Assembly: GCA_963810095.1 (NCBI GenBank)
Contig: CAWEMM010000012.1
Location: 672,001-736,000, forward strand
Length of the DNA: 64,000 bases
Direction of reading: 5' to 3'
DNA from: an uncultured Chloroflexia bacterium
GTDB taxonomy: Bacteria > Chloroflexota > Anaerolineae > CG2-30-64-16
Shown: positions 7,313 through 40,622 of the stretch, piece after piece
Layout of the letters: each line of letters starts with the position of its first letter
Numbering within the stretch: position 1 is the first letter of the stretch
Notes under the pieces: generated by a model
Database searches by the model: none
Seen by the model: only the letters and a program-made list of their open reading frames with translations
Told to the model about the DNA's origin: nothing
Position numbers and translations under genes: made by a program

Positions 7313-7330
7313 ATGTGATTTTACGCACAT
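7313..7330. promoter_or_regulatory. Putative Rex-like operator upstream of ndh
   Basis: ATGTGATTTTACGCACAT resembles TTGTGAA-N4-TTCACAA; CRP/FNR-type reading also possible. Confidence 0.45.
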
Positions 7331-7449
7331 ATTCGTAATGAGTGTCACAGATATTTGTGTGCCCGTGTGAGAAACTATGGAGGATCGCAGGACGTTCTGG
7401 AATAGTAGTGGCTGGGTCTGCCAGGCGGGCTTGTGGTGAGGAGGCGTGA

Positions 7450-16481: not shown

Positions 16482-17963
16482 CTACGCGGCCAGCGCGGGC
16501 GCAGCCGCACCCGACGACTCGGGCGCCCGCACCCCGCGCAAGGCCAGCACCGACACCAGGAACATCACGCCGAAGATCCCAAACAGCAGGACGTAACCGG
16601 CGCCGGGCACGCCCGGCAGCCGCAGCGTCACGTAATCGGCAATGGGGCCGCCGATGTACGCGCCGACCGCGCCCGCACCCGCACCCGCCAGGTTCGAAAT
16701 CCCCAGGTACTTCCCTGCCTCCGCACCGGGCACGATCCGGGTGCCCAGCGCCCAGTTGGCCGTGAAGAAGAACCCCGTCGCAATGCCGATCAACGTGCCG
16801 CCGATGTAGATCACCGTCATGTTGGGCGCGAGCAGGGCAATGAGCACCCCGAGCGCAGCGACGACCCCGCTGATCTGGAGCAGCCGCTTGTGCCCGAAGC
16901 GGTCGCCCAGGAACCCGCTCGGGATGGCCGCGATGAGGATGAAGACGCCGATTACCGTCATCAGCAGGGCCGCCGGCCCCGCCGCCTTCTCCCGCTCGAG
17001 CCCCAGCCGGCCCTGCAGGAAATAGATCGCAAAGGTCGACAGGTTGGTTGTGCCGACCAGGAACGCCAGGCGGCTGACGACCCACCAGGTGAACGACGGG
17101 TTGGCCTGCGCGGCCCGGTTGCCGATGCTGATGCGCACGCTGACCCAAACGCCGATGGCGACCGCGACCAGCATGGCCGCGATCCCGATCAGTCCCATCA
17201 GCGGCATGAGTGTTAGCGCCGAGTCGAGCGAGCCGAACGGGCCTGCCAGTTGCTTCACGGCCCAACCCAGGCCGAGGATGATGGCGGTGAAGACGGCCGT
17301 CATCGCCAGCAGCCGCAGGATCGAGCTCCAGTCAAACGGAGGCGCGTCTTCGCGGCTCAGCGGCCGCTCTTGCACCAGCATGGTCAGGAGCATGGAGACG
17401 AGCAGGATCACCGCTGCCAGCCCCAGCGCGGCCCACAGGTTGCCCCCGGCAATCAGGCGTGCGATGGTAAATGAGACCAGGATCAGGGGGATCGGGATTT
17501 CAAGCACCGCTTTGATGGCCGAGGCCCGCCCGCGCTTCTCGTCGGGCACAATGTCGGGGATGAGGCCCTGCTGTGCGCCGTGCGCGGTGTTGGCGGCGAC
17601 CGACTGCAGGATAGCGATGACGAAGAGGAACCAGAAGCCCGCCATCCCGAGCATCCCCGCCGAGACGCCGGTCAGGCCGATGAAGACGAGCATCCCCAGC
17701 GTCCCCACGAAGATGAAAGGCCGTCGCCGGCCGATCGGGGAGGTGTTCCGGTCGGAGAGCATGCCCATGACCGCCTGCCACAGCAGCGCGACCATGAGGC
17801 TCCACAGCCGCAGCTCGCCCAGGCGGGTGCCCTTGGTCGCTTCACCCACGAAGTTCTGCACCAGCAGGGGGAACACGAGACCGTTGGTCTGCGAAAGGGT
17901 CGTGAGCGCGAGGAAGAAGATGTTGATGGTGATGTAGTCGTACCAGCGCAAACGCCGCGTCAT
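16482..17963 (-). CDS. MFS transporter
   Basis: GMLSDR..GRRRPF, GFLGDRFG; ATG at 17963 after GGAGG. Confidence 0.85.
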   Translation of the reverse strand: MTRRLRWYDYITINIFFLALTTLSQTNGLVFPLLVQNFVGEATKGTRLGELRLWSLMVALLWQAVMGMLSDRNTSPIGRRRPFIFVGTLGMLVFIGLTGVSAGMLGMAGFWFLFVIAILQSVAANTAHGAQQGLIPDIVPDEKRGRASAIKAVLEIPIPLILVSFTIARLIAGGNLWAALGLAAVILLVSMLLTMLVQERPLSREDAPPFDWSSILRLLAMTAVFTAIILGLGWAVKQLAGPFGSLDSALTLMPLMGLIGIAAMLVAVAIGVWVSVRISIGNRAAQANPSFTWWVVSRLAFLVGTTNLSTFAIYFLQGRLGLEREKAAGPAALLMTVIGVFILIAAIPSGFLGDRFGHKRLLQISGVVAALGVLIALLAPNMTVIYIGGTLIGIATGFFFTANWALGTRIVPGAEAGKYLGISNLAGAGAGAVGAYIGGPIADYVTLRLPGVPGAGYVLLFGIFGVMFLVSVLALRGVRAPESSGAAAPALAA

Positions 17964-18010
17964 GGGGCCTCCTTGGCTCGAGGAGTCGGGGGGAGGGCGG
18001 ACGGGGAACG

Positions 18011-18241
18011 CTATCCCCCTCCCATCGGTGGGTAGAATTCTATCACATCCCGGTCTGTCACCGGGGGGTGATCCCACTGCGCCAGCCGGCGGTTGACCGC
18101 AATCACGGCCACTTCGGCGGGGGGCACGCCCAGTCGGGCCGCGAGGTCGCCCAGGGAGACGGGTTGCGGCTGAGCCAACTCCAGCCAGTCCCGCTTCTCC
18201 CTGTCATACCAGCTCAGGTGTCCACCCAGATGTACGCGCAT
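18011..18241 (-). CDS. MoaD/ThiS family sulfur carrier
   Basis: Ubiquitin-like size, 'AVN', C-terminal PPMGGG; adjacent to AOR. Confidence 0.85.
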   Translation of the reverse strand: MRVHLGGHLSWYDREKRDWLELAQPQPVSLGDLAARLGVPPAEVAVIAVNRRLAQWDHPPVTDRDVIEFYPPMGGG

Positions 18242-18252
18242 GGATGAGAATG

Positions 18253-18336
18253 GGACGCAGATTGAACTGATCGAACTGATTTTGCCGATTTTTTAGTCGA
18301 ATCATGGGGATCAGTTGAATCAGTCTAATCAGCGTC
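18253..18336. repeat. GATTGAACTGAT/ATCAG inverted-repeat element
   Basis: GGACGCAGATTGAACTGATC...ATCAGTCTAATCAGCGTCC; relatives at 26117-26206 and 30137-30250. Confidence 0.65.
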
Positions 18337-20267
18337 CTATTCAGTGCCTCCCGTGGCAAGCTTCTCTGCAGCCCAGCCGATGCCGAGCGCTTCCAGCCGT
18401 TCGCGTGTGGGAATGCCGGTCTCCGTGTCCCAGCCCTTGATTTCATACAGGTCGGTCAGCGCGCGCTCGAAGTCTTCGCGGGGGTATGCGACGCCGGCCA
18501 GCGCGCCCCCTTCCAGCGGCTGGAACAGCCGCTCGGGCAGCGTGTCGTCCTGCCGGGTGCGCCCCTCCCGGGCATTGAACACCCGGGCGAGGTTATTGGC
18601 GCGCTCGCCGATCCGCATCAGCTCGTCCAGCGTGACATCCCAGCCCGGTGGCCGCATGCACCGTCTCCACCACGTCGGGAATCGCGATGAACGAGCGCGG
18701 CGCGGGCCCGAAGTAGCACAGCCCGCTCGTCTTGCCCCAGTTGTTCCAGTGCTCCATCAGCGTGTAGTACTCGACCTTGCGCCGGCTGAGGTCGCGCGGG
18801 GCCAGCGGCTCGGTCACGCCCAGCGGCTCGACGCCCTTGAACTGGAGGGAGTCCGGGTTGGCCAGCACGGGGTCGTGGAATGCCGTCAGGTGCTCGGCGC
18901 CGGTCTCGGAGGTGGCATATGACAAGCCCACGCCCACCTTGCCGCGCGGCTCGTGCATGGCCAGCTCCTGCCCCTTCACCTGCATGGCAAAGAGCGGTGC
19001 GTCGCCCCCGATCGCTTCCGCGGCCCGCTTGCTCCCTTCGGCCAGCAGGTTGCCGATGCCCTCCCGGCGCCCGATCAGCTCCACGCAGCGGACCATGGCC
19101 GGGGCGTTTCCGAAGCGGAGGTCGAGGCCGCCCGTGTCCTCCAGCCCAATCAGCCCGTGCTCGAAGCATTCCATGGCGAATGCGACGGTGGCGCTGCACG
19201 AAATCGCGTCCATCGTGAAGCGGTTGCACAGCTCGTTGGCCTTCGCCACGGCCTGCAGGTCGTCGATGCCGCAGTTGGAGCCGAAGCCGGCGACCGCCTC
19301 GTACTCGGGCCCGCCGTAGTTGTCGCTCACCTGGTACGCGGTCGCCGGCTGCGCCGCCGACCTTCACTTCGCGCTTGCAGCGCACCGCGCACGCGTAGCA
19401 GCTGCGCCGGGCGCTCAGGATCTCCTTCTCGTAGGCTTCCCAGCGCAGGTTGTCGACGCCCTCGAACCCGCCGCTGCGGAAGTTGCGGGTGGGCAGGATG
19501 CCCCCGGCGTTCAGCCCCCCGGTGAGCCCCGGCGTGCCCTTCACCTGCAGGTCCCAGCTCAGCGGGTTCTCTTTGACCTCTTTGGCAAGCTTCTTGCCGA
19601 AGTTCGCGATCCACGGCCCATCTTCCGCCATGTCGACGTAGCGCGTGCTGCCGCGCACGGCGACGGCCTTCAGGTTCTTCGACCCCATGACCGCGCCCAT
19701 GCCCGTGCGCCCGTTGAAATGGCGCAGGTCGTTCGTGATCGCTGCGAACCGCACGCCCTTTTCGCCGGCCTCGCCGATCTGCAGCACGCGGACCAGCTTA
19801 TCGCCCAGCTCGCCGCGGATGGTCGCCTGGGCTTCCTCCGGCTCGCGGCCCCACAGGTGCTCGGCCGGGCGCAGCTCGACCTGGTCGTCCTTGATCCACA
19901 GGTACACCGGTCGCTCGGCCCGCCCCGTGATGACCACGGCCTCCCAGCCGGCCATCTTGAGCTCGGGGCCCCAGAACCCCCCGGCCTCCGACTCGCCGTA
20001 GCCGTCCGTCAGCGGCGACTTCCCGATGGCCGTGAAGCGGGTGGCGGTGGAAAAAGGCGCGGCGGTCAGCAGTCCGTTTGCCAGGATCAGGATGTTCTCG
20101 GGGCCCAGCGGGTCGACATGTGCGGGCAGTTCTGATAGGAGCAGGTAGGCGCCGAGCGCTTTGCCGCCCGGGTACATGCGATAAGTCTTTTCGTCGAGGG
20201 TCTGCGTAGCGATTGAGCCGCTCGCCAGGTCGACGCGTAGGATTTTTCCGGTGTAGCCAAATGGCAT
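18337..20267 (-). CDS. aor: Aldehyde:ferredoxin oxidoreductase (W/Mo-bis-pterin), frameshifts at about 19340 and 18650
   Basis: GYTGKILRVDL, KSPLT..GESEAGG, GRTGMGAVMGSKNLKA, CYACAVRC, GPEYE, HEPRGK, DDTLPER. Confidence 0.88.
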
Positions 20268-20281
20268 GATTGAGCCTCGGT

Positions 20282-21080
20282 TTATGAATGGTGCGGGTCG
20301 CCGGCGACGGGCTGCCCGAACTGGCGCGCGAGGAACCGGCGGGTGGCTTCGAAAAGCTCCCCGCGTTCGCAGTCGAGCGCCACGCAGTGCGTGGACCGGT
20401 CGAGCCAGAGCAGTTCCTTATCGGTCGAGCCGACCCGGTCGTAAATCTCCTGCGGCGCGGCCGGGTCGACCGTGCGGTCCAGCCGGCCGTGGACGATGAG
20501 GATCGGCTGGCGGATCTCGGGCAGCAGCGGGCGCACGGCAGCCTGCAGGCGCAGCAGTTCCCGGATGCCCCGTGCCGGCCGCACGTCGTATCCTTGCCAA
20601 AGCGCATCGGACTCGGCGGGCGCGCCGGGCTTCGGATGCACCATCACGTCGAAGGGCGCGAGCGCATACGCGGCCCGTTCCTGGAATGAGCTGATGGCGA
20701 GCTTGAGCGCGGGCGCGTACGAGAGCACCGCCGCAATCTCCGGGTGGGTCGCCGCCAGGTGCAGCGTCAATGCCGCGCCCGTCGACTCGCCGCCAACCGC
20801 AACCCGGCCGCAGCGGGTCTTCAGTGCCACGTACGACGGCTGTGACGGCCCGCAGCCAATCGCGCCAGCCGTAGTGCCCGAGGTCTTCCGGCTCCGTGCC
20901 GTGCCCGGGCAGCAGGGGCGCAGAGACGGTGTAGCCCGCCGCGTGCAGGTTTTCCGCCAGCGGCCGCATCTCCGCAGTCGTCGCGGTCAGCCCGTGCACG
21001 AGCAGCACGCCGTCCGGCCCCCCGTCCAGGCAGAAGGCGTCGCCGGGCAGGTGGTCGTTGACAAGAAGTCTCTTCGACAT
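20282..21080 (-). CDS. Carboxylesterase / alpha-beta hydrolase (frameshift near 20835)
   Basis: LLVHGLT, LPGHGT, GESTG nucleophile, D and H triad motifs. Confidence 0.82.
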
Positions 21081-21174
21081 GCAGGATCCTTACCACTAAG
21101 ACACAAAGAACCGAAGACGCACGAAGTGATTGTGCAACTTCGTGTCTTGGTGTCTTTGTGGTTAGTCGGACGAC

Positions 21175-22092
21175 TTATGGCAGCCACTTCTTTGCCAGCC
21201 GGCATACCATCGTGTAGGCCGGGTCGTAGACGTTGCCCAGGTCGTAGTCCACGCACTGGCCCAGGAGGATGCTCGCCTCCTGCATGGTGAGGCCGTAGTC
21301 GGCGGTCAGCCAGCGGAGCATTTCGGTCGTGGCGTGCTGCAGGGCCTGGTCGAGCGGCCGGGCGTTGCCAACCGTGAAGATGTGCTCCGCATTCTCGCCC
21401 CTGGGCCACCGAACCGGCGCGTGCGCCTCCTGGCCCTTGATCACCCGGAGGCGGAACTCGACCTCGAACGAAATCTCGATCCCCGTTCCCACCACCTCGC
21501 CGTCGCCCTGCACCGCGTGCCCGTCGCCGATGAAGAAAAGCGCGCCCGGCACCGCAACGGGGAAGTATGCGGTCACGCCCGCACAGAAGCCCCGGTAGTC
21601 CATGTTGCCGCCGTGCGGTCCGGCCGTGGACGTGGAGATGGCCTGGCCGCCGGCGGGCGCGACGCCGAAGCAGCCCACCATCGGCGCAAGCGGCAGGGCC
21701 AGCCGGCCGAGCTTGGGGAACGGCTCCTGCGGCGTGGCACAGCCGGCCGCTGCGTCGACGTCCCAGATCAGCGTTTCGGCCTCGGGCAGCGAGGCGACAA
21801 AGCTCGGATCGACCACGCCGGGCGCGACGACGTCACGGGTGAAGCCGGTCGGCCGGTTGGGCGCCAGGCGGATGAGATCGACGGCCAGGGTATCGCCGGG
21901 CTCGGCCGGCTCGACATAAAAGGGACCCGTCTGCGCGTTCGGGCGGCCGCCAGCAAGCTGGCCGTGGTGGTCCCAGCCGTGCGCGTCGATGGTCGTGGTC
22001 ACGACCGTATCGCCGTCGGCGACCGTGAGAACGGGCGGATGCGAGCCGAGCGTGTTGTAATAGCGGGTTGGTGCGAAGTGATGAGTCGTCAT
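21175..22092 (-). CDS. Acetamidase/formamidase family protein
   Basis: TGPFYVE.AEPGDTLAV, HGGNMD, GDGHAVQGDGEV.GTGIE. Confidence 0.88.
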   Translation of the reverse strand: MTTHHFAPTRYYNTLGSHPPVLTVADGDTVVTTTIDAHGWDHHGQLAGGRPNAQTGPFYVEPAEPGDTLAVDLIRLAPNRPTGFTRDVVAPGVVDPSFVASLPEAETLIWDVDAAAGCATPQEPFPKLGRLALPLAPMVGCFGVAPAGGQAISTSTAGPHGGNMDYRGFCAGVTAYFPVAVPGALFFIGDGHAVQGDGEVVGTGIEISFEVEFRLRVIKGQEAHAPVRWPRGENAEHIFTVGNARPLDQALQHATTEMLRWLTADYGLTMQEASILLGQCVDYDLGNVYDPAYTMVCRLAKKWLP

Positions 22093-22096
22093 AACA

Positions 22097-23364
22097 CTAG
22101 CGTAACACCGGGATTGTGGCGTTGGCAAATGGCATGACGCCAATGCGCGCGCCGGATGGCAGGCGGGCCAGCGCCTCGTCCACGGCCTGCTGGAGCGAAG
22201 GGGCGGGGTTCAGCAGCAGGCGCTCGGCCAGGCTGCGGTCCATGTCTGACACGAACGTAAGGCGGACGCGGGCCGCGTCGCGTGCGATCTGCCACGCCTT
22301 GTGCGGGCCGATCCGGTAACCCTCCGCCGCATAGCGGTCGAGCACCTGCTCGTGCGTCGTGAAGCCGCCGTCGAGCATCCAGCGCTCGTAGGCTGCGCTG
22401 CCCGTGCCTTCCCCGCAGGCCGCGGCCAGGATCACTGCGCCGCTCAGAGCGGGAACCAGCCGGGTCACCAGGGTGGCGTGCGCGAGGGCCTTTTGCGCCT
22501 GGTACAGGTTGATGTCCTTCGGATGGCCGCCGGGCGACACGATGACCAGGTCGAACGGGCGGCTGACTTCCACCGCGTAGATGGCGCGCAGCAGGGGGAT
22601 GCCCGCCTGCATCACGTCGACCGGGCGCCCGGCCAGGACGTGCGCGATCTGCTTGTGGTCATTCAGGATCGCGTTGAGCGCGTAGTCCACCCCGATCAGC
22701 CGCCCGATCTCTTCGACATCCTGCCGGCAGGGGTTGTCCGCGTAGGAGTTGATCTCGGCGCCGGCCGCGGTCATCATGGCATGGTTCGTGTTGATGGTGG
22801 CCTTCGCCGTCAGGCCCACCGCCGCGCTCTTGACCCCGCCCGAGAAGCCCATGAACTGGTGCGGCTCGATGTTCCCCACGACCACCCGCAGGTCCGCCTC
22901 CCACCAGCGCCGGTTGACGCTGACGGGCGTGCCGCGGGCCGTCTCGCCGAGGTAGATCAGCTCGCCGTCCGCATTGCAGTCGTGGCTGTACACGGGGTAG
23001 CGGGCGAGGATCTCGGCCGGCAGGATGGCCGGGAATTCCTCGGGCGGCATGGGGGCGTGGGTGCCGGTCGCCACCAGCAGCGTGATGTTCTCGGGGAGGA
23101 ACCCGAGCCCTTCGAGCCGGGCGAGCAAGGGCGGCAGAAGGTAGCGGTGGGGGACGGGCCGGGTCTTGTCGTTAACCGCGACGACAGCCCTCCGCCCTCG
23201 GTTCGTGGGCAGGGGCGCGGCGTCCAGGGCCGCCTCGACTGCCGCCAACGGATCGGGCGAGGGCGCGGCCTCGCGGGGCGCGAGCAACTCCACCCGGCGT
23301 CCAGCGCGGCGGGCAGGTCGAACTCGACAAATCCTTTCCCGTAGGGAAGCTGGTAGCGGGTCAA
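22097..23364 (-). CDS. larA: LarA-family nickel-pincer 2-hydroxy-acid racemase (frameshift near 23295)
   Basis: LPYGKG, NDKTRPVP, ATGTH, HD, EPHQFMGFSGGVKS, GGHPKDINLYQAQKAL, GPHKA. Confidence 0.85.
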
Positions 23365-23371
23365 CGGCGCC

Positions 23372-24485
23372 TCATGCAAACAGCCGGATCAGCAGCAGGC
23401 TAAACAGCGCCAGGCAGCCGCCCACGGCAAAGCCGAGCGCGAGCGGCTTGAGCCCGGTGCGCCGGATGCTCGCGGCGTTGGTGCTCAGCCCGATGGCCGA
23501 GAGGGCGAGCAGGATGCAGAGCTTCGTCACCTCGTCCAGCAGCTTCAGCACGTTGGCGGCGGCTACCAGGCTGCCCGGGTCGTTCACGTTGACCGGTGTG
23601 AAGCCGAGCGCGTTGCCGAGCGACCGGACCAGGCTCATGCCGACGAAGCCGAGCACGAACCAAGGCACGATCTTGCCGATCGACAGCTTGACCGACGCAT
23701 CCCGCTTCTGCTGCGCCCGGGCGTACACCAGCCCGATGCCGAGGATCAGCGGGGCCATGAGCGTGTTGCGCACGAGCTTGACCACCGTCGCAACGTCGCG
23801 TGCCGCGTCGCTGAACGCCGCGCCCGCGGCCACCACCTGCGACGTGTCGAGGATCGCAGTGCCGGCCCACAGCCCGAAGATCCGGTCGCTCATGCCCACC
23901 AGGTAGCCGAACGTGGGGTAGAGCAGCACGGCCAGCGTGCCGAAGAAGGTGATGGTGGCGACCGCATAACTCACATCCTCGTCCTCGGCCTCGATGACCG
24001 GGGCCGTCGCAATGATGGCGGAGTTGCCGCAGATGGCGGTGCCGACGCCGATCAGCGCGGCCAAGCCGGGGGCGGATACGGAGGGCGCGCCCCAGCAGGT
24101 AGGCGAGCGACAGGGCAAAAGCCACGCACGCGAGCACCAGCAGCAGCGCAGACCCGCCGATGTTGATCACGTCCTGGAAGCTGAGCCGCACGCCCAGCAG
24201 GATAATGCCAAAGCGCAGGATGCGGGTCAGAGCGAACTTGATGCCCGGCTCGAAGCGGGCGGAAAACCCGATCGCGTTGCGGACGAAGAACCCGAGCAGC
24301 ACCGCGATGAAGACTTCGCTCACCGCCCGAGCGATCTCGGGCGAGGGGATCAGCCCGTGCAGGTAGCGCGCGATGAGCGCCACGGCCAGCACCAGGAACA
24401 GGCCCGGCAGGGCAGGGCGCAGCTCCGCGCCGATCTTGCGGAGCTCGGCAACAAGTGGATTGACGTGCGTTGTAGGGGCGATCAT
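23372..24485 (-). CDS. YeiH/UPF0324 putative sulfate/sulfite exporter (TauZ/SuyZ-like; frameshift near 24075)
   Basis: LRFGIILLG, GTAICGNSAI.A.AP, FGLWAGTAILDTSQVVAAG, VVKLVRN, VPWFVLGF. Confidence 0.85.
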
Positions 24486-24496
24486 GGCAGCTTCCC

Positions 24497-24561
24497 GACC
24501 TTCGGGGTTTCGACCGCGAGCAACCTGACCGGGTCAGGCGCTCGGTGAAACCCCGAAGGTC
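24497..24561. repeat. Long hairpin, GACCTTCGG...CCGAAGGTC family
   Basis: Imperfect palindrome related to 7206-7239. Confidence 0.55.
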
Positions 24562-24576
24562 TCGGATTGGAGCGGG

Positions 24577-25725
24577 TTACGCGCTCTCGTAGAGCTTCGT
24601 CAGGACGAACTCGTCGTGGCGCAGGGCCTCGGCGGCGGTGAAGCGGCCGTTGATGGTGTGTTCCAGCACCTCCATCGCCTTGTCGGCGCCCTCGTCCAGG
24701 TTGATCTCGATGCGGAGGAGCCCGGTCAGGTCCACGTCGATGTGCTCGGACATCGTCGCGACGGTCAGCGGGTTCGCACACAGCTTGATGACGGGGATGA
24801 TCGGGTTGCCGATGATGTTGCCCTGCCCCGTGGGGAAGTAATGGACGACCGACCCGGCTGCCGCGCACAGGGTGACCATTTCGGCCGCGGCCGACGACGA
24901 ATCCATGAAGTGCAGGCCCGGGCCCTGGGGCTCCACGGCCTTGTCGAGCACGCCCACGACGGTGCAGCGCCCCATCTTCTGGATGTTGCCCATGGCCTTC
25001 TCTTCGATGGTGGTCAGGCCGCCGCGGATGTTGCCTTCGGTCGGCTGCGAGCCCAGCAGGTCGACGCCCTTGCTCTTCACGAGCGCCTGGTAGTCGTTGA
25101 AGAACTGCATGAACCCGTCGGCCACTTCCTGCGTCGCGCACTGGTTGGCGATGATGTCCTCGCCGCCCGTGACCTCGGTCGTCTCGCCGAAGATGAGGGT
25201 TGCCCCAGCGTCCGCCAGCCGCTCGAACACCCGGCCGACCGTGGGGTTCGCCGCCAGGCCCGACGTGGTGTCCGACTCGCCGCACTTGGTGCTCATGCAC
25301 AGCTGGTCGACGGTGAACGGCTCGCGCTGCAGCTCGGTGGCGTACTGCACGAACTCCATGGCCTTGCGCGCCGCCATCTCGATGGTCTTCAGGTCGCCGT
25401 AGCGCTCGATGCTGAACCCGGCGACCGGCTTGCCCGTCTCGGCGATCGCATCGACCACCCGCTGCGTCCACTTCGGCTCGATGCCGATGACGATGGCCGC
25501 GGCCACGTTCGGGTTGCGCCCGGTGCCCGCCAGCGTGCGGAAGGTCAGCTCGAGGTCCTCGCCGAACTGCAGCCGGCCGTATGGGTGCGGCAGGGCCATC
25601 GTGCCCTTGATCAGGCTGGCAACGCCGTTGGCGGCGGCATTGGAGATGTCGTCGATCGGCAGGATGATGACGTGGTTGCGGACGCCGAAGCGGCCGTCCG
25701 GGCGCTTGTAGCCCAGCAGCTTCAT
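24577..25725 (-). CDS. suyB: Sulfolactate sulfo-lyase beta subunit (UxaA family)
   Basis: GVRNHVIILPIDDISNAA, PHPYGRLQFGEDL, KCGESDTTSG, MDSSSAAAE, FPTGQGN: SuyB-type rather than altronate dehydratase. Confidence 0.85.
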   Translation of the reverse strand: MKLLGYKRPDGRFGVRNHVIILPIDDISNAAANGVASLIKGTMALPHPYGRLQFGEDLELTFRTLAGTGRNPNVAAAIVIGIEPKWTQRVVDAIAETGKPVAGFSIERYGDLKTIEMAARKAMEFVQYATELQREPFTVDQLCMSTKCGESDTTSGLAANPTVGRVFERLADAGATLIFGETTEVTGGEDIIANQCATQEVADGFMQFFNDYQALVKSKGVDLLGSQPTEGNIRGGLTTIEEKAMGNIQKMGRCTVVGVLDKAVEPQGPGLHFMDSSSAAAEMVTLCAAAGSVVHYFPTGQGNIIGNPIIPVIKLCANPLTVATMSEHIDVDLTGLLRIEINLDEGADKAMEVLEHTINGRFTAAEALRHDEFVLTKLYESA

Positions 25726-26086
25726 TTCCTCCGGCTTCTTGCCGCCCAGGGCCAGCCGCTCGGTGTGCTTCTGGACGATTTCCGGCGCGGGCGCCTCTTC
25801 CAGGCTCCACGCGCATCGTCTTCAGGTTTTGCGTGTGGACGTGGCCGCCGCAGGGGATGGCCGCAGTCGTCTGGCCGATCGTGCGCCCGTACTTGAGCAG
25901 CTTGTGCCCCGCCGGCATGTCGCGCATCGCAACCTTGTGGCCCAAGGGCACGTCGTTCACGACCTTGAGGCTGCCGTGCTCCTGCCCCTCCAGCGTGACG
26001 ACGCCCACTTCCTCGCCCGCGTGCAGGTCGCGCACCGCCACGCCGACATCGTCGATGAGTTCGTGAATCAGGATTCCGTGTGCCAT
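25726..26086 (-). CDS. suyA: SAF-domain SuyA-like module, probably fused to SuyB
   Basis: HE..DDVGVA, VPLGHKVA, KYG..IG, HVHTQNLKTMR(W); one extra base near 25810. Confidence 0.8.
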
Positions 26087-26214
26087 GATGAGTGCCTTTC
26101 GTAAACGGGATTGGAATGGGACTCAGTTAACTGATCAAACTGATCGACCTGATCTTTCTTGAATATCATGAAGATCAGTCCGATCCGTTCGATCTGTGTC
26201 CCATTCTGCGTTCT

Positions 26215-27431
26215 CTACAAGTCGATCCCGTTTTCGCGGAGCAGCTCGTCGATGAGCACGGGCTGCCCGGTCTTGACCGATTTTTCGGCCGCCGCGCCGA
26301 CGACGATGGACCAGAAGCCCTCGGCGGCTGTGGCCGCTGTCCTTGGCGCACCGTCGATGTTGTCCACAAAGCTGACGTGCTCGAAGTAGGTCGCGCCGTG
26401 GTGGCCGCTCGCCTGGATGAAGCCGGGTAGCACGGCGTGCCGATGCGGGTGGGCTTGCGGTCGCCGCACTTGATCTCGATGGTCGTGTCGGGCTGGCCCG
26501 CCGGCAGGAAGTCCTCGTTCTCCGACACCTTCAGCCGGCCGTCGTCGCCGCAGAGCACCATCTCCTCGTAGAACATGGGCGAGAACATGCAGAGGTTGAA
26601 GGTGGCCCGCACGCCGTTGGCGTAGTTGACGATGACGAACGGCGTTGTCGATGATGTCCGACTTTTCGCCCTCGTACTCGAAGTCGAGGAAGTTGACCGC
26701 CGCGCTGCCGCTCGCATACACGCTGACCGGCCGGGCGCCGGCGAACAGGTTCATCAGGTCGAAGTAATGGCAGCACTTCTCGACCAGCGTGCCGCCCGAG
26801 TACTTCGAGAACTTGTTCCACTGCTTCACCTTGTCGAGGAAGGGGAAGCGGTGCTCGAGGATGCTGATCGTCTTGATGTCGCCGATGGTCTTGCGCTCCA
26901 GCGCCTCGTGGATGGCCTCCACGTAGATGGGCTTGAAGCGGTACTGCAGCCCGATCTGGAAGACGGCGGGGTGCCGCTGCGCCATCTGCATGATGGCATA
27001 GGCGTCGCAGACCGTCGTCGCCATCGGCTTCTCGAGCAGGATGTGCTTGCCCGACGCGGCGGCCACCCGCACCACGTCGAGATGCGTGAAGTTCGGCGTG
27101 CAGATGATCAGGCCGTCGACCGCCGGGTCGTTGCACGCCGCTTCGAGCGAGTCGTACACGACCAGCTTTTCCCGCCCGGGCGGAACTGGGCGTGCATCCC
27201 CTGGGCGCCGGCAATGCTCAGCGGGTTCGGGTCGTACACGCCGTGGATGACCGCGCGGCCCTCCATGCCCGTCACCCGGATGTGCTCCTGCCCGTTGACG
27301 CCCGTTCCGATCACGTTGAAGCGGTAGCGCTCCTCTGCCGGTGCGAAGAGGTAGCGGTCTTCGGCCGGGATGTACGCGAAGACGGGGCTCCGCGCAAAGA
27401 CCTGGTTGCGGAATTCTTTACCGATTGGCAT
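26215..27431 (-). CDS. Gfo/Idh/MocA-fold protein, probable NAD-dependent sulfoquinovosidase (GH188/SqgA-like); frameshifted
   Basis: EKPMAT, GLQYRF, EHRFPFLDKV.QWN, GGTLVEKCCHYFDL, HHGATYFEH; SQ gene context. Confidence 0.75.
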
Positions 27432-27446
27432 AGCGTTATCCTCGAC

Positions 27447-28111
27447 TTATTCGTACGGCGTCTTGTCCCAGAAGCTGCAGAACCGCTTCAGCCCCTCGTC
27501 CGTCCACGGGTGCTGGACCATGCCCTTGTACACCGCGAGGCCCGCAGGTCACGATGTCCGCCCCGGCCACGGCCGAGTCCACGATCTGCCGGCCGTTGCG
27601 CACCGCACTGACGATGATCTCGGTCGGGAACTCGTAGTTGTCGCGCATCATCACGATTTCCTGGATGAAGCGCACGGTTTCTTCGCCGGTCTCTTCCTTC
27701 CAGCCGATGAAGGGCGAGACGAACGTCGCGCCGAGCCGCATGGCCTGCAGCGCCTGGCTGCCCGAGAAGACGAGGGTCAGGTTGACGCGGATGTTCTTCG
27801 GCCCGCAGGCCGCGCAGCGCCCGGAACCCGGGCTCGGTGGCGGGCAGCTTGATGACGAAGTTGGGGCTGAGCGCGGCCAGCTTCTTGCCCTCGGCCACCA
27901 TCTCGCGCCAGTCGTCGTAGTGCGGGTTGACCTCGACCGACACCGGCAGGTCTGTCCCCTTGAAGATCTCCGCGATCTCCTTGATCACGACCATGAACGG
28001 CTTGCCCGAAGCCTGCACGTGCCGGGGGTTCGTCGTCACGCCGTCGATCCCCACCATCTCCAGCGCGTACGTGATCTCGTCCGTGATCGCGCTGTCCAGG
28101 AAGAACTTCAT
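27447..28111 (-). CDS. 6-deoxy-6-sulfofructose transaldolase (SqvA/SftT-like); frameshifted
   Basis: MKFFLDSA, GVTTNPRH, SGKPF, VEVNPH, SPFIGWKE, RNGRQI: match recalled SqvA rather than classical TalC. Confidence 0.82.
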
Positions 28112-28248
28112 CCTTGCCTCCGAATGTGTGTCGTCGCCCGCGGGACCAATGTCGAGGCTACCACAAGGTGCCCGATGACATGGCTTCACAAAGCTCTGCA
28201 ACTATCGCCTGGCTTCCGTTTGTCTGTGTCTTTGTGTTAAAGTCATGT

Positions 28249-29197
28249 CTACCTGCCGCCGAAGCCCGTCGTTGCGACGCCCTGCACGAAGTAGCGCTGG
28301 GCGAAGACGAACACGATCAGGATCGGGATGAGCACCGCCGTCGACGCCGCGAACAGCAGCTCCCAGTTCCCCGTCATCTGCACGTCGTTGAGCGCGCGCA
28401 AGCCGAGCGCCAGCGTCCAGTTTTGCCGGCCGTTGATGTAGATCAGCGGCTGCAGGAAGTCGTTGTAGCTCTGCAGGAACGCGAACACCGCCACCGTCGC
28501 GATGACCGGCTTGGACAGCGGCAGGATGATGTTGAAGAGGATGCGGACGCGGCTTGCGCCGTCGACCAGCGCGGCTTCCTCCAGCTCCATGGGGATGGTC
28601 TTGAAGAACTGCCGCATCAGGAACACGTAGAGCGGCGCCAGCGCCAGCCAGAACGGCACGGTCAGCGGCAGGTAGTTGCGCGGCAGGTCGAACAGCGTGC
28701 CCGGCAGGTCGAGCACGTTGCCCGGCTTCGTCCAGCCAAGCGTCCTGAACTCGATGAACATCGGGATCATCGTGATGATCTCGGGCAGCATCATCGTGCC
28801 GAGCAGCATGCCGAAGAAGAAGTCGCGGCCGGGCCAGCGCAGCCGGGCGAACGAGTAGGCCACCAGCGACGACGACAGCACCACGCCCAGCACGGTCAGG
28901 AGGGAGATCTTGAAGGTGTTGACCGCAAACGTGGCGAAGGGCAGCAGCTGCCATCGCGTCGGCGTAGTTGCGCCACTGGGGCACGGCCGGGATCCACACG
29001 ATCGGGTTGGCGAAGATCTCGGGCTGGCTCTTCAGCGACGAAGAGACCATCCACAGCGTGGGGCCCAGGAACGTGAGCAGGATCAGCGTCATCAGGACCT
29101 GCAGGCCGATGATGCCCAGCCGGTCCATCGTCTTGCGCCGCGATTTGGCGGCCGCGTATTTTTCGGTCTCGACCGTTGGCGTGGCAGGGATGTCCAT
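28249..29197 (-). CDS. Carbohydrate ABC permease (MalG-type; frameshifted)
   Basis: AYSFARLRWPGR, ELEEAALVDGAS (EAA loop), QRYFVQG. Confidence 0.88.
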
Positions 29198-29206
29198 GGG
29201 GCGCTC

Positions 29207-30118
29207 CTACGACTCGTAATACACCCAGCGGCTCGACACGTAGAACTGCGACGATGGTCAGGCCGATGACGATGATGAAGAGCTCCCACGCCAGCGCGGA
29301 AGCGTAGCCCATGTTGAAGAACTGGAAACCGTTCCGGTAGATGTTGAGCACGACGAACAGCGTCGAGTTTTCCGGCCCGCCGTCGGTCATGATCAGCGCG
29401 GGGACGAACGTCTGGAACGAGTTGATGATCGCGATGATCATGTTGTAAAAGATCAGTGGCGTCATCAGCGGGACGGTGATCTTGAGGATCGAGGTGAACT
29501 TGCTCGCGCCGTCGATCTGCGCGGCTTCCTGCAGCTGGACCGGGATGTTGCCGAGGCCGGCGATAAAGATCACCATCTGGCGGCCGATCATCCAGAACGA
29601 CATGAAAGATGAAGGCGGGCTTGGCCAGCTCGGGCTTGAGCAGCCACGGCTGTGCCGGGATGCCCACCCAGCCGAGGATGGTGTTCAGGATGCCGAAATC
29701 GGGGTGCAGCACCCGCTGCCACACGACGGCCGTCGCGACGACAGGGATGATGATGGGCAGGTAAAAGCCCGCCCGGTACATCGCCCGGAACTTGAGCGGC
29801 TGGGTCAGCGCCAGTGCCAGCGAGAAGGAGATGACAAGCTGGAACGGCACGGCAAAGAGGGTGTAAATCGCGCTGTTCACCAGCGCCTTGCGCGCCAGCT
29901 CGTCGGTGAACACCCGCGTGATATTCGCCAGCCCGGCGAACAGCCGGCGGCGAGAGCAGGTCCCATTTCTGAAACATCAGGTAAATGGAGTAGAGCATGG
30001 GAAATGCGACGAAGGCGAAAAAGCCGATCAAGAACGGCGCAGCAAACAGGTAGCCTTGCAGCCATTCGCGGCGCTGAAATGACGACACGCGGCGCCTGGG
30101 TTGCGTTACAGCGGCCAT
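29207..30118 (-). CDS. Carbohydrate ABC permease (MalF-type; frameshifted)
   Basis: GYLFAAPF, LQEAAQIDGAS, TDGGPENST, MGYASALAW, WVYYE. Confidence 0.88.
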
Positions 30119-30257
30119 GCCGTACCTCCCGAAGCAGAATTGGACTCAGATTGAACTGATCTGACTGATTTGCCTGATCCTTCACCCTGGGCTGGCAGGG
30201 TAATCACGAACAAGATCAGGTGATCAGTCCGATCAGTCCAATCTGCGTTCTATTGCA

Positions 30258-31674
30258 CTATGCGCCGAGCGCGGCGTTCAGCTTCTCGTCGACCTGCGGG
30301 AAGACCTCGGCCGGCTTGGCGCTGCCGTTGTTGATCTTGTCCCATGCGGTCGGCTTCACGACCTCGGACCACATCTTCGAGCGCGGCACGTTGGCGCTGA
30401 CCACGTCGATCTGGCCTTCCTTGAACGCATCGAGGAACGCCTGGCCGTTCTCGATCTGGTACAGCTCCTTGGTGCGCGGCACCCACCAGCTTTGCGCCAG
30501 GTCGAGGTTCGACGGGATGCGGCCGGTGATGGTGGAGTACTGCTTGTTGCCTGCTTCGCTCACCAGGAACGCGGCGAACGCCCAGGCGGCCTCGGCCAGG
30601 TCGGTCTTCGGTGACCGCGACGCCTTCGCCCCAGCCGCGATGCGGCCGGCCCGAAACGTTGGGGGTCTTGGGCATGAGCACCACGTCGAAGGGCACTTCC
30701 TTCTTCTGCTCGCGCAGCTTCGGGCTGTTGAGCTGGGGCAGGAACCACGGCCCTTCGTACTTCATGGCGCACTTGCCGGTGTTGATCGTGTTCGCGCCGG
30801 ACGTGTCGGCCGGGCTCGGCGCGACCTTCCAGGTGTGGGGCATGTCGTAGGAGGTCGTGGTGATGCGGTCCACGATCTCGGGCTGGTTGAACATGGCCTT
30901 CTTCGGGTCGATGATCGTGTCGAACTCGCGCTTGCCCGTGCCGACGATCCAGCCGATGTCGCGGTACCAGTTGCCGTTGACCTGGTAGCCGAACAGGCCC
31001 TTGCCCGCGTCGGTCAGCTTCTTGGCCGTCTCGACGAACTCGTCGAACGTCCAGTCGGTCTTCGGGTAGGCCACGCCGGCGTCGTCGAAGATCTTCTTGG
31101 CGTAGAACATGATCATCGTCGCGGCCTGCAGCGGGATGAGGAAGGTCTTGCCGTTGCGCTTCGTGCTCTGCTCGACGCTGGTGTAGCCCGAGGGGTAGAC
31201 GTTGGTCACCTTGTCGCGGGTGATCCAGTCGTCGACCGGCTGGAGCAGGCCCTTGTCCGCATAGGCTTGCCACTCCCAGCCCTGGAAGGAGGCCAGGTTG
31301 GGCGGCGTGCCGCCGGCGAACATGGTCTGCAGCTTGGTGTAGTAGTTGGCGTTAGGGTCGGCAACCGGCGTGATGTTCACCACGTTCCCGGTCAGCTTGG
31401 TGTACTCGGGCCCCAGCACTTCCCAGGCCGGGACCGTCGGTCGTGTCGCCCCAGGCGAGGAACTCGATCGGGGCGAGCGCTGCCCTTCGCCGCAGGTGCG
31501 GCAGTCGGGGCGGCTGCGGCCGGCGCGGTGGTCGCCGCGGGCGCAGCCGTGGGGGCGCTGCGGCCGGTGCGTGGCCTGCTGGCCGCCGCATGCGGAGAGC
31601 AATGCGGCCGCCGCCAGGCCCCCGCCGCCCAGCTTCAGGAACTCGCGGCGGGACAACTTGGTCTGCTTGGACAT
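30258..31674 (-). CDS. Sugar ABC substrate-binding lipoprotein with Tat signal (frameshifted)
   Basis: LSRREFLK Tat motif, LSAC lipobox, YYTKLQTMFAGGTPP, DWTFDEF. Confidence 0.85.
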
Positions 31675-31788
31675 GTGCCTTTCCCTCCCTGGGTGGTGTT
31701 GAGATCGCGTCGTGGGGCCCGTGCGCAGCACGCCGCCTCATGACAGGAGTTGACTTACGACAGGCGTTGACCTACGACAGCTGTTGAC

Positions 31789-33142
31789 TTACGACAGGCG
31801 CAGCACGGGCAGGTCGAGCAGCCGCGCCAGCGCCAGCAGGGCGTCCAGGTGGTCGCCGTAGGTCAGGGAGATGTGGTGGTCCAGCCCTTCGGTCATGATG
31901 GTGTCGAAGCACCTCTTGGGCCGGGCGGTCGAACCGGATGCACGCCGGACGTGCCCGTGTAGCTCATCGGCGCGTGCTGCATTTCGCCCGCCGCCACGAC
32001 CAGCCGGTACTCGCCCGTGGCCTGGCTCAGGCGGGCGAGGGTGACGCGGCCCGGCTTCAGCGGGAACTCCATCAGGAGCGGCTTCTTGCGGTTCGAGTGG
32101 ACCGTCGTGCGGGGCCGCAAGTCGGGATCGGCCATCGAGAGCGGCGCGAGCCCGCAGTGCCACAGCACCGCCTCGTCCCGCTCCAGGTCCCAGCCGACCA
32201 TGTCGGTCCCAAAGGCGGGCTCGCCGCTCAAACCCTGGAGAATCAGCCCCGTGACCGTGCCGTTCACGTCGGCCTCGCACGAGCACGGCGTCATCTCGTC
32301 GGTCAGCAGCGACATCGCGCCGCACGCGGCGCCGCCCAGCTCGGTGAAGAACTCGGGCCAGCAGCGCACCGCCAGGCCCCGAAAAGGCGTTTTCGTCGGC
32401 CAGCCGCCCCAGCGTGACGTACGCGCCGAGCGTGTTGCGCAGCGGCTCCTGCTCCAGCTCGTCCAGGCCGTCCACCCGCTCGCTGCAGGTTCGCCAGCAC
32501 CGGGTCTACCGCGCTGACCGCCGCGCTCCGGGCGCCGTCGAACACTTCGGCCAGCCCGCGCTGCACCACCTGCACGCCCAGCCGGGCCGCCAGCGCATCG
32601 CCGTCATACGTGCACGGCTCGAAGCCGTCCGGGTTGAGCCCGAACCGCCCGATCCGGGCGCTCTTGAGGCGTGCGCCGCACCCGGCCCGCTTGTGCCAGC
32701 GTGAGCAGCTTCTGCATCGCCTGCGCGGTCTTCCGGCTCGGCGTAGACGTACTCATAGCTGAACCCGGCCCGGCGCAGCGCGTGCGCCGCCAGGTTGATG
32801 CCGCAGAACGAGTTCAGCCGCAGCCGGCCCCCGGTGCGCTCTTCGGGCAGCGCCCACAGCAGCAGTGGCGCGCCGGGCACGGTGCGGGCCAGGTCGACGA
32901 CCATGGTGCTGTCGGCGAACGAGGCCTGGAACGCGAGCAGCAGGTCGACCGGCTCGGACAGCAGCTCGGCCGGCCGCCGCCCGCACGCCGTCCAGGTCCA
33001 TCACGAGGTCGGCCGGACCGTGCACCACGCAGCCGGCCTCGTCGAGCCGGGCGCGCATGCGGGCCATCATTTCGGCCGCCAGGGGGACGTCGAAGGTGGG
33101 ACGGGCAATCGGAATGAAGCCGATGTGCAGCGTTGGTTTCAC
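31789..33142 (-). CDS. L-fucose-isomerase-family protein, probable SQ isomerase (SqvD/SftI-like); frameshifted
   Basis: [48 protein letters not shown]; GTG overlaps the ROK stop. Confidence 0.78.

Positions 33143-39083: not shown

Positions 39084-40622
<1,539 letters not shown>

Follow-up and report, generated by a model that had tools for sequence, protein, structure and literature searches.

A LarAH5-family racemase gene beside suyAB in a Chloroflexota sulfoquinovose cluster: a candidate sulfolactate racemase

The window, a 64,000-nucleotide stretch from an uncultured Chloroflexota bacterium (contig C12, 672001-736000), carries on its minus strand what is, judged by gene content, a sulfoquinovose (sulfo-TAL) pathway cluster. 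At its head lies a ROK-family regulator or kinase fragment (33354..34085; Pfam ROK, E 9e-25). Fragments of an SftI-like sulfoquinovose isomerase gene (31896..32904) match the NCBIfam model NF048012 on two frames (E 1e-42 and 1e-07, both under the cut-off of 700) and show 42% identity by tblastn to the homologue at a related locus, L104. An ABC importer (28252..31731; SBP_bac_1, BPD_transp_1) is encoded by three frame-broken genes, one for a solute-binding protein (30250-31731) and two for permeases. It is followed by a sulfofructose transaldolase gene of the SftT/SqvA type (27450..28111; TAL_FSA), broken twice, and by a frame-broken Gfo/Idh/MocA-type gene (26215..27431; Pfam) for a candidate NAD-dependent sulfoquinovosidase (GH188, SqgA-like). 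An intact relative of the cluster, L012, supports these assignments. The window transaldolase is 92% identical to its L012 orthologue across the N-terminal part, and that orthologue scores 272.6 bits against BmSF-TAL (8BC3) versus 170 bits for ordinary transaldolases. The L012 GH188-type orthologue matches PDB 8QC2 and 8QC3, which are FlSqgA and ArSqgA, with E values of 2e-62 and 1e-61; the next family follows at 8.5e-19.

The middle of the cluster holds suyAB (24577..26086), predicted from GD_AH_second and GD_AH_C matches and from SuyB orthology to encode (2R)-sulfolactate sulfo-lyase. Pfam shows an SAF-type small part and a GD_AH large part. In L012 suyA and suyB form one fused gene (a 502 aa ORF), and the window copy changes frame at about 25810, which splits it in two. 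The window SuyB is 66.8% identical to that of C. pinatubonensis and 58.5% identical to that of P. versutus, with the next tier of matches below 40%. The reference proteins in this 58-67% range come from hpsN-hpsO-...-suyAB and suyAB-suyZ clusters. The window SuyAB thus appears to be an orthologue of the canonical-cluster enzymes, and a preference for the (R) form is predicted by analogy with proteobacterial SuyAB, whose (R) specificity is given in the available text of the published work. Next comes a yeiH/suyZ-type gene for a putative sulfite/sulfate exporter (23372..24485; PF03601 on both pieces, TIGR00698), broken near 24065 and lying in two frames relative to L012. The same family comes after suyAB in P. 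versutus and S. mexicanum. The first-pass annotation had named suyAB and a YeiH exporter upstream of larA. The genes are as it described them, except that suyA and suyB are really one fused gene and that the exporter gene is frame-broken.

Beyond larA itself (22097..23364) lie an FmdA/AmdA-family (acetamidase/formamidase-like) gene only 4 nt further on (21175..22092; PF03069), a frame-broken alpha/beta hydrolase gene (20303..21080; spread over two frames in the window, with its L012 orthologue matching Hydrolase_4) and a gene for an aldehyde:ferredoxin oxidoreductase, AOR, broken twice and spread over three frames (18358..20267; AFOR_N, AFOR_C). Related loci carry either an AOR gene (63-81% identity) or an aldehyde dehydrogenase gene in its place. 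The cluster ends with an MFS transporter gene (16482..18077; MFS_1), which lies in a single frame and is 79% identical to its L012 orthologue. The likeness to the sulfo-TAL (SFT) systems of Bacillus aryabhattai and B. megaterium (Frommeyer 2020) lies in the SftI-like isomerase and the SF-transaldolase orthologues. A 2026 review places the sulfo-TAL pathway in Chloroflexi as well (PMC12890257). Sulfolactate or DHPS is excreted by the sulfo-TAL pathways described. The window operon differs in adding a sulfolactate lyase, an exporter and a racemase candidate, as would serve full desulfonation in one organism. It also has AOR in place of SlaB and a GH188-type in place of a GH31 sulfoquinovosidase.

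The larA homologue is assigned to the LarAH5 family by Pfam and NCBIfam NF052595 and is a candidate sulfolactate racemase gene. Its main ORF spans 22097..23293 on the minus strand (398 aa), and the product matches Lar_N (PF09861, E 6e-49) and LarA_C (PF21113, E 1e-11). The candidate start is a TTG at 23364, with GAGG 6-9 nt upstream, 7 bp past the TGA (23374-23372) of the YeiH-type gene. The gene is thus tightly spaced on a single strand, 7 nt from its upstream neighbor and 4 nt from the downstream one. The span 22097-23364 is 1268 nt, which is no multiple of 3, and the first ~19 codons from the TTG (MTRYQLPYGKGFVEFDLP...) lie in a different frame from the remainder. When three relatives are aligned to it, the window shows a gap of one base at about 23306-23311, with conserved sequence on both sides of the break. 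Of the earlier statement that larA directly follows suyAB and YeiH after a gap of about 8 bp, the order and the gap (7 bp) hold, and the N-terminal codons turn out to be in another frame.

If the break near 23307 were real, larA would be a pseudogene here, and racemisation would be done by something else or not be needed. The break is present in the deposited sequence, and read cover over its bin (23152-23322) is 1.15, in one of four runs only. Six DNA runs share sequence with the window, the best containing 0.15 of its words; no RNA run is listed. Against decay stands the state of the cluster as a whole. Ten of the 12 cluster genes switch frame once or twice relative to the intact L012 orthologues, and 62-97% amino-acid identity to these is maintained on either side of each break, a pattern that speaks for indel errors and not for decay. 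At 25813, exactly the suyA/suyB break, and again at 24548, near-identical DNA in short-read contigs is one base shorter. Since so many cluster genes are broken alike and conservation extends to either side of the larA break, that break is probably an assembly error, and a pseudogene is very unlikely.

The best NCBIfam match of the 398-aa piece is NF052595, an equivalog named "nickel-dependent malate racemase, LarAH5 family", which it matches with 469 bits (cut-off 462) in spite of the missing N-terminus. The L012 orthologue reaches 496.9 bits. The same model is the best match in all 13 clade members tested, and 12 of these exceed the cut-off; the thirteenth, a partly mis-framed read, has 461.3 bits. 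Against the LarAH6 model the window protein scores 369.7 bits, under the cut-off of 500. In a plasmid collection no close relative was found, the best match being 36.8% identical. The gene family proposed at first is confirmed by Pfam; the frame break and the curated "malate racemase" name had been overlooked.

Ten residues (R45, H79, H145, K155, H171, Y264, Q265, K268, H331 and K332) are invariant across 33 LarA sequences (alignment A1) and align with Mar2 (PDB 6D6Z, E 4e-69). They include a catalytic histidine pair, H79 (ATGTH) and H145 (EPHQF), aligned to the Mar2 histidines; the catalytic histidines of L. plantarum LarA are H108 and H174 (PMC11770544), the pair being mapped to LarA1 numbering through motifs and Mar2 rather than by direct alignment to 5HUQ. 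The NPN-binding residues R45 (DKTRP), K155 (SGGVK) and H171 (NHA) are conserved relative to Mar2 and have R75, K184 and H200 as counterparts in LarA1. The cofactor genes are encoded elsewhere in the genome, as had been anticipated: larE, larB and larC adjoin one another on contig C2 (G000:C2:113532-116260), all over their NCBIfam cut-offs (LarE 317 bits, cut-off 150; LarB 277, cut-off 175; LarC1/C2 191 and 165).

The family name raises the possibility that the product is a malate racemase of the Mar1 type, interconverting D- and L-malate, with its place in the operon either incidental or serving carbon metabolism downstream of pyruvate. NF052595 is the best match and is over its cut-off. Mar1 of Desulfitobacterium hafniense, the sole characterised LarAH5 enzyme, racemises malate in vitro (PMC7583248, available text). 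In addition, the published signature of malate racemases is H/Q plus K where LarA1 has W358/T359 (PMC11770544), and H331-K332 of the window protein, in a "GPHKA" stretch that lines up with "GAHKA" in Mar2, conforms to it. The kinetics point the other way. According to the available text of the same study (Desguin et al. 2020, PMC7583248), the KM of Mar1 for L-malate is 55 mM, with a kcat/KM of 0.39 per s per mM, compared with a sub-millimolar KM for Mar2; the authors doubted that malate is the native substrate of Mar1, and sulfolactate is not among the substrates named there for it. D. hafniense DCB-2 is able to use sulfolactate as electron acceptor, according to the available text of the 2026 review (PMC12890257). 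Pfam showed no malic enzyme, malate dehydrogenase or dicarboxylate carrier in the window operon. Elsewhere the genome encodes a LarAH6-like copy as well as a true LarA, so that the window larA would not be needed for malate or lactate. On balance a malate racemase seems unlikely here. Within A1 every one of the named positions is invariant, and no residue was found that tells clade members linked to suyAB from those that are not, so the sequence itself gives no pointer to sulfonate over carboxylate.

A survey of the best 80 loci of the LarA clade, with neighbors counted within 6 kb, showed an orthologous SuyB of at least 68% identity (T1) at 27 loci and a UxaA-type lyase sharing about 36% identity with SuyB (T2) at 26; 19 had neither and eight ran into a contig end. 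At the T2 loci the lyase takes the operon slot of suyAB. The T1 loci carry the taxon labels Chloroflexota, Acidobacteriota, Verrucomicrobiota and Spirochaetota. Among 301 Acidobacteriota genomes sampled the clade occurs in two, both times beside a SuyB of 77-78% identity. The linkage to suyAB noted at first is therefore recurrent, through the orthologous SuyAB at 27 of these 80 loci and the paralogous UxaA-type lyase at 26, but it is not universal, the 19 unlinked loci having been overlooked. On a quick tree the T1, T2 and unlinked members are interspersed without clean clades, T1 requiring 14 changes compared with a shuffled mean of 23.6.

The unlinked members bear on the malate racemase. Some clade members lie away from any suyAB, and the four unlinked loci annotated with Pfam have unrelated neighbors. 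In two of five such genomes a SuyB-like gene is absent at E 1e-40, and in the other three there are 37-39% matches elsewhere. A malate synthase gene adjoins LarA on the opposite strand in L037 and L058.

The T2 loci in turn allow for an enzyme that is not specific to sulfolactate, namely an NPN-dependent racemase or epimerase of some other anionic 2-hydroxy acid, such as tartrate or glycerate, that goes with UxaA-type lyases generally. The low identity of the T2 lyase to SuyB agrees with this, as does the epimerisation of tartrate by malate racemases, reported in the available literature text. The T2 loci, however, have the sulfoquinovose layout of T1, with an aldehyde dehydrogenase, an SF-transaldolase-like gene, GH4, the lyase and LarA. 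A transaldolase gene lies within the flank in nine of the 26 T2 loci among these best 80, and others have SftI-like genes. In the window the partner is the orthologous SuyAB, followed by a SuyZ-type exporter. Another 2-hydroxy acid as the substrate is thus quite unlikely.

A stereochemical gap would give the linkage its sense. Sulfoquinovose breakdown yields (S)-sulfolactate, SuyAB is (R)-specific, and inversion proceeds through SlcC and ComC; these premises of the first-pass annotation are all in print, as far as the available texts of the sources go. SlcC and ComC together form the "sulfolactate racemase" of Chromohalobacter salexigens (Denger and Cook 2010, available text). The pair is recognizable in S. 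mexicanum, where an unannotated record has the order suyA-suyB-yeiH-2Hacid_dh-Ldh_2. Because a published paper, in its available text, gives this species SlcC and ComC homologues, the 2Hacid_dh-Ldh_2 pair can be taken as the SlcC/ComC type. SlcC as an NAD_binding_2 protein (beta-hydroxyacid dehydrogenase) was considered and rejected, the partner of Ldh_2 in S. mexicanum being a 2-Hacid_dh protein.

No such pair was found in the window, in agreement with the original observation. A six-frame search of the whole genome for Ldh_2 (PF02615) gave only C12:571074-572054 and C7:522347-523327, outside the window. Queries with suyAB-linked 2-Hacid_dh proteins (tblastn, own genome) matched only on C6, C1 and C9, with none in the window. 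Pfam scans of 16 window ORFs and of 128 stop-to-stop frames of at least 170 aa showed neither Ldh_2 nor 2-Hacid_dh. The genome likewise has no orthologous SlcC/ComC pair, the best Ldh_2 and 2-Hacid_dh matches being 32-38% identical and lying apart at four loci, two per family (Ldh_2 on C12 and C7, 2-Hacid_dh on C6 and C1).

Across suyAB loci the two solutions tend to exclude each other. Ldh_2 or 2-Hacid_dh genes occur at one of 35 loci with LarA versus 30 of 83 without (Fisher p 6e-5, the loci being related and not independent), so that the expected co-occurrence of LarA with suyAB in the absence of slcC/comC was found. Neither this complementarity nor the linkage to a sulfolactate-lyase gene at 53 of the best 80 loci is expected of a malate racemase. 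LarA is not obligatory for the lyase either. Orthologous SuyB occurs in 17 genomes of a Chloroflexota sample, of which 15 have no member of the LarA clade, and three of nine LarA-less Chloroflexota suyAB loci also have no SlcC/ComC-type gene nearby, which indicates that SuyAB is evidently able to work without either.

Taken together, the favorable linkage, slcC/comC complementarity and larBCE results support the original idea of a one-enzyme racemase as the gap-closer. The larA product is best read as an NPN-dependent 2-hydroxy-acid racemase of the LarAH5 family with 3-sulfolactate as its candidate physiological substrate, a reading to which we assign a probability of roughly 65%. The substrate, the direction of flux and the AOR step are deduced from the genes. 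In the proposed route, sulfoquinovose glycosides would be imported by the ABC system and cleaved by the GH188-type enzyme. Sulfoquinovose would then be isomerised by the SftI-like enzyme and split by the sulfofructose transaldolase to give (S)-sulfolactaldehyde, with AOR as the candidate enzyme oxidising it to (S)-sulfolactate. LarA would invert C2 by proton-coupled hydride transfer through enzyme-bound sulfopyruvate, a single cofactor-dependent protein in place of the SlcC plus ComC dehydrogenase pair. The fused SuyAB would convert the resulting (R)-sulfolactate to pyruvate and sulfite, and YeiH/SuyZ would export sulfite or sulfate. K332 of the His-Lys motif would grip the sulfonate, its malate-racemase counterpart being thought to hold the distal carboxylate.

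Three known systems place the candidate. The likeness to Mar1, drawn through the family model NF052595 and motifs, includes the same equivalog family, two domains, the catalytic His pair, the NPN-binding Lys/His/Arg and the His-Lys motif. Both enzymes would presumably use the same C2 hydride-transfer racemisation on an acid that has a four-atom chain and an anionic group at its far end. The proposed substrate of the window LarA differs in being the sulfonate analogue 3-sulfolactate, and its gene in lying in a sulfoquinovose/sulfolactate operon. Mar2 (LarAH6) of Thermoanaerobacterium thermosaccharolyticum (PDB 6D6Z) is, among solved structures, the nearest in sequence (E 3.6e-69 with residues 4-396 aligned). 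It has the His-Lys motif in common with the window LarA, but the loop past the second catalytic His reads Y-K in Mar2 and Q-F in the window protein. With SlcC/ComC the window LarA would share the proposed net conversion of (S)- to (R)-sulfolactate via sulfopyruvate, and it shares the position beside suyAB(-suyZ). SlcC and ComC, however, are unrelated 2-Hacid_dh and Ldh_2 proteins that use free NAD(P)(H) and release free sulfopyruvate, whereas LarA would act as a single enzyme, its nickel-pincer cofactor staying tethered and no net redox change taking place. As no SlcC/ComC-type genes lie beside the window suyAB, LarA would be at most a functional analogue of that system and not a member of it.

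Sulfolactate racemisation is a reaction so far unreported for the LarA/nickel-pincer family, and a search of literature outside subscription-only papers found no published link between sulfolactate and a nickel-pincer or LarA racemase. Each year about 10 billion tons of sulfoquinovose are produced, and degradation of this sugar gives (S)-configured C3 sulfonates, according to the available text of published work. SlcC/ComC is the only known bridge from (S) to (R), and many suyAB loci are without it. If the proposed function is correct, a single NPN racemase closes this gap in widespread sediment and sludge Chloroflexota and in some other phyla, and nickel-pincer chemistry extends to sulfonates. 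It would also give LarAH5 a native substrate, a problem flagged by its discoverers, and would improve sulfur-cycle annotation, such genes now being called lactate or malate racemase. Methods for a direct test of the prediction exist already, in the form of NPN reconstitution and of sulfite assays coupled to SuyAB.

A broader proposal is that the entire LarAH5 group, including Mar1, consists natively of sulfolactate racemases. It is tentative, and its chances are put somewhat below even. If the broader proposal held, these would be the first nickel-pincer enzymes on an organosulfonate and a one-protein substitute for SlcC/ComC. Anaerolineae-type bacteria would be able to take sulfoquinovose all the way to sulfite anaerobically within one organism, using a tungsten-type aldehyde:ferredoxin oxidoreductase for sulfolactaldehyde. 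The T2 lyase would then be a second, hitherto unrecognised UxaA-type sulfolactate lyase in many relatives.

Two smaller features of the cluster recur at other loci. The FmdA/AmdA-family gene is next after LarA in L012, L027, L035 and L040 as well, at 64-74% identity. ROK genes also flank the suyAB loci L104, L107, L109 and L111.

Every gene between about 34085 and 16482 lies on the minus strand. The cluster starts with a ROK regulator fragment and pieces of a gene for an SftI-like sulfoquinovose isomerase, which match NF048012 at E 1e-42 but stay below its cut-off, followed by an ABC importer and a transaldolase. The transaldolase orthologue in L012, an intact syntenic relative of the cluster, scores 272.6 bits against the B. 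megaterium sulfofructose transaldolase structure and 170 bits against ordinary transaldolases. Next is a Gfo/Idh/MocA protein. Its orthologue hits two NAD-dependent sulfoquinovosidases, FlSqgA and ArSqgA (8QC2, 8QC3), at E 1e-62, the next family reaching 1e-18. After this gene come suyAB (24577-26086), the gene of a YeiH-type exporter, larA itself, an FmdA-like gene (21175-22092) 4 nt past larA, an alpha/beta hydrolase, an aldehyde:ferredoxin oxidoreductase (AOR, 18358-20267) and an MFS transporter that ends at about 16482.

The SuyB protein shares 66.8% identity with its counterpart in the C. pinatubonensis hpsN-hpsO-...-suyAB cluster and 58.5% with the one in the P. versutus suyAB-"sulfate exporter" cluster; the remaining plasmid-borne UxaA proteins are all less than 40% identical. 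Its close homologues are labelled (2R)-sulfolactate sulfo-lyase subunit beta by JGI automatic annotation. The characterised sulfo-lyase is described as two subunits, whereas in L012 suyA and suyB form a single 502-aa ORF (7188-8696). They are fused in many database homologues (497-512 aa), and split forms of 387-388 aa also occur at 80% identity or more. Gene content and the SuyB identities predict a sulfo-TAL sulfoquinovose pathway with an added sulfolactate desulfonation. In the available text of a 2026 review (PMC12890257), sulfo-TAL is recorded in Chloroflexi and stops at DHPS or sulfolactate, whereas the cluster would go on to desulfonation; racemase, SlcC and nickel are all absent from that text.

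Related loci vary around this core. The FmdA/AmdA-family (acetamidase/formamidase-like) gene after larA is kept at 64-74% identity (L012:11181-12095, L027, L035, L040) and has no evident pathway role. A GH4 glycosidase takes the place of the GH188 SqgA-like gene at L017, L020, L024, L029, L032, L033, L038, L044, L045, L056, L059 and others, and may be an additional type of NAD-dependent sulfoquinovosidase. The tungsten-type AOR (window 18358-20267, L012, L014, L015, L016, L055, L064, L085) replaces the aldehyde dehydrogenase of other loci and is a candidate ferredoxin-linked sulfolactaldehyde oxidase; to our knowledge none has been described so far. L012 also carries, in a 1.3-kb stretch between the transaldolase and GH188-like genes, a 309-aa ORF with no Pfam match (4606-5535) that is absent from the window.

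The first-pass annotation placed larA at 22097..23364, about 8 bp past the exporter gene. The coordinates are correct and the adjacency stands, with a gap of 7 bp, but the 1268 nt span conceals a frame break. The main ORF (22097..23293, minus strand) has 398 codons and matches two Pfam domains, Lar_N at E 6e-49 and LarA_C at E 1e-11; LarA homologues have 417-440 aa and an N-terminus "LPYGK". The N-terminus in the window, MTRYQLPYGKGFVEFDLP..., starts at TTG 23364, 7 bp past the TGA of the YeiH-type gene and with GAGG 6-9 nt upstream. This N-terminus lies in a frame different from that of the main ORF. In a DNA alignment with three relatives, the window larA has a 1-base gap at about 23306-23311.

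Such breaks are found throughout the cluster. When the L012 proteins were placed on the window by tblastn, 10 of 12 cluster genes (SBP, both permeases, transaldolase, GH188-like, suyAB, suyZ, larA, hydrolase and AOR) showed one or two frame switches across 16482-31731, with 62-97% amino-acid identity on either side of every switch. The density is about 1 indel per kb, as is typical of long-read assemblies that have not been polished. Near-identical fragments are present in contigs of four public freshwater-sediment runs, and these short-read contigs are one base shorter at 25813, the exact suyA/suyB break, and at 24548; their cover at the larA break is nearly zero. From the cluster-wide switches and the short-read differences, the larA break is therefore a probable assembly error.

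The gene is a LarAH5-family NPN (nickel-pincer nucleotide) racemase. Among NCBIfam models it scores highest against NF052595, "nickel-dependent malate racemase, LarAH5 family", reaching 469 bits vs a cut-off of 462 although the N-terminus is missing, and it falls below the cut-offs of the LarAH6 (369.7 vs 500) and lactate racemase (245.6 vs 460) models. NF052595 was the best match for all 13 tested members of its clade of close relatives, 12 of them over the cut-off. Among solved structures, the malate racemase Mar2 (6D6Z, E 3.6e-69) is closest. Across 33 aligned close homologues there is no variation at H79 and H145, which match the catalytic histidines, at R45, K155 and H171, which match NPN-binding residues, at the YQxxK carboxylate site or at the His-Lys pair H331-K332. 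H/Q plus K at the positions equivalent to this pair is the malate-racemase signature, its Lys being proposed to hold the distal carboxylate, in the portion available of a 2024 JBC survey (PMC11770544). The larBCE genes, whose presence elsewhere in the genome the first-pass annotation named as a check, are indeed there: LarE, LarB and LarC lie adjacent at C2:113532-116260 (contig C2), all over NCBIfam cut-offs. Four further LarA-superfamily genes are present in this genome of 6.13 Mb (16 contigs, 88.5% complete). Each is at most 37% identical to the window LarA; one is a true lactate racemase (486.7 bits vs 460) and another is LarAH6-like.

Conserved linkage of LarA to suyAB, a check named in the first-pass annotation, was seen in a scan with the clade alignment, one genome per species. 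Among the best 80 of 361 relatives (54-72% identity), 27 have a SuyB orthologue of 68-96% identity within 6 kb, almost always immediately upstream. Another 26 have within 6 kb a UxaA-type gene of two subunits that shares about 36% identity with SuyB (L017, L029, L033, L034, L037, L045, L047, L050, L056-L058, L061, L065, L067, L069, L071, L073, L074, L076, L081, L084, L086-L088, L090, L091), 19 have neither and 8 are interrupted by a contig end. The SuyB-linked loci are mostly labelled Chloroflexota, with 1 Verrucomicrobia, 2 Acidobacteriota and 2 Spirochaetota; MAG binning may err, though the per-contig linkage holds. The clade occurs in 2 of 301 sampled Acidobacteriota genomes, and in each a SuyB (77-78% identity) lies roughly 0.5 kb away. 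In a quick tree, 81 clade rows are split from two own-genome paralogues by a long, well-supported branch, and the contexts are clustered yet interspersed (14 changes for SuyB linkage vs a shuffled mean of 23.6; 0 of 500 shuffles as low).

Both lyase types share one layout: aldehyde dehydrogenase/AOR, SF-transaldolase-like, GH4 or GH188-like, lyase, LarA. We therefore infer that the UxaA-type protein is a second lyase type of the same pathway. At the 26 loci it fills the slot of SuyAB directly before LarA among sulfoquinovose-type neighbours; no specific NCBIfam model matched it, and it may represent a sulfolactate lyase family that has so far gone unrecognised.

The first-pass annotation also named as a check whether LarA accompanies suyAB where slcC and comC, the two-dehydrogenase inversion pair, are absent. 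Orthologous SuyB was found in 17 of 401 sampled Chloroflexota genomes, and the clade is co-present only in the window's genome and G175, adjacent in both. Of the 15 LarA-less loci, nine were examined. Six of these have an Ldh_2 and/or D-2-hydroxyacid dehydrogenase gene next to suyAB, in most cases together with a GntR regulator. The S. mexicanum plasmid has the order suyA-suyB-yeiH-2Hacid_dh-Ldh_2, and the sulfofucose paper, in its available part, states that this organism has SlcC, ComC, SuyA and SuyB homologues; thus the suyAB-linked pair is of the SlcC/ComC type. In a second sample, 80 SuyB-anchored metagenome loci (64-90% identity), the neighbour was LarA in 6, SlcC/ComC-type genes in 24, both in none and neither in 50, many on short contigs. 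With all samples pooled, the two solutions are complementary: SlcC/ComC-type genes occur at 1 of 35 suyAB loci with LarA vs 30 of 83 without it (Fisher p 6e-5, overstated because the loci are related). The lone exception, L085, has its dehydrogenase gene 8 kb off. When the suyAB-linked dehydrogenases were compared with the window's own genome, the best matches reached 32-38% identity and lay at four separate places (Ldh_2 on contigs C12 and C7, 2-Hacid_dh on C6 and C1).

The usual suyAB partners in Chloroflexota and metagenomes are 2-Hacid_dh, Ldh_2 and GntR (L104, L106, L108, L109, L111, L113 and 24 metagenome loci among L114-L193). Genes for an aldehyde dehydrogenase, a ROK protein and an SftI-like isomerase are often present too, so that such loci resemble full sulfoquinovose-to-sulfite clusters with the SlcC/ComC solution.

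Sulfolactate is malate with a sulfonate in place of the distal carboxylate. Most likely, at a probability of about 0.65, the window LarA racemises sulfolactate as part of an operon that covers the whole route from sulfoquinovose to sulfite. A broader or dual (malate and sulfolactate) specificity would be compatible with several observations: clade loci unlinked to a lyase, of which two of five genomes examined have no SuyB-like gene at E 1e-40; the named selectivity residues, which showed no difference between lyase-linked and unlinked members in the alignment; and the many suyAB loci with neither LarA nor SlcC/ComC. Sulfolactate racemisation would be a newly proposed activity in the known LarA superfamily and not a new kind of system. 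In malate racemisation, D. hafniense LarAH5 (Mar1) has a KM of 55 mM and a kcat/KM of 0.39 per s per mM, and Mar2 (LarAH6) 0.38 mM and 185 per s per mM; in the accessible part of their paper, Desguin et al. suggested that the native Mar1 substrate is perhaps not malate, naming tartrate or 2-hydroxysuccinamate, and found no explanation of its activity in the genomic context (PMC7583248). D. hafniense DCB-2 can use sulfolactate as an electron acceptor, according to the portion available of the 2026 review (PMC12890257). The string "sulfo" is nowhere in the text of a 2024 follow-up on the LarA family, and no paper proposing a sulfolactate racemase role for LarA was found in the openly accessible full-text literature.

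Beyond the cluster, the window carries a type I restriction-modification system (39262-47275), with HsdM at 39262-40629 and parts of HsdR at 44318-47275. An IS21-like IstB/HTH gene lies at 48057-49679. A DUF362 protein (59992-61089), whose family served the 2024 survey (PMC11770544) as the LarA outgroup, adjoins an Old-Yellow-Enzyme-type flavin oxidoreductase (61139-62170).
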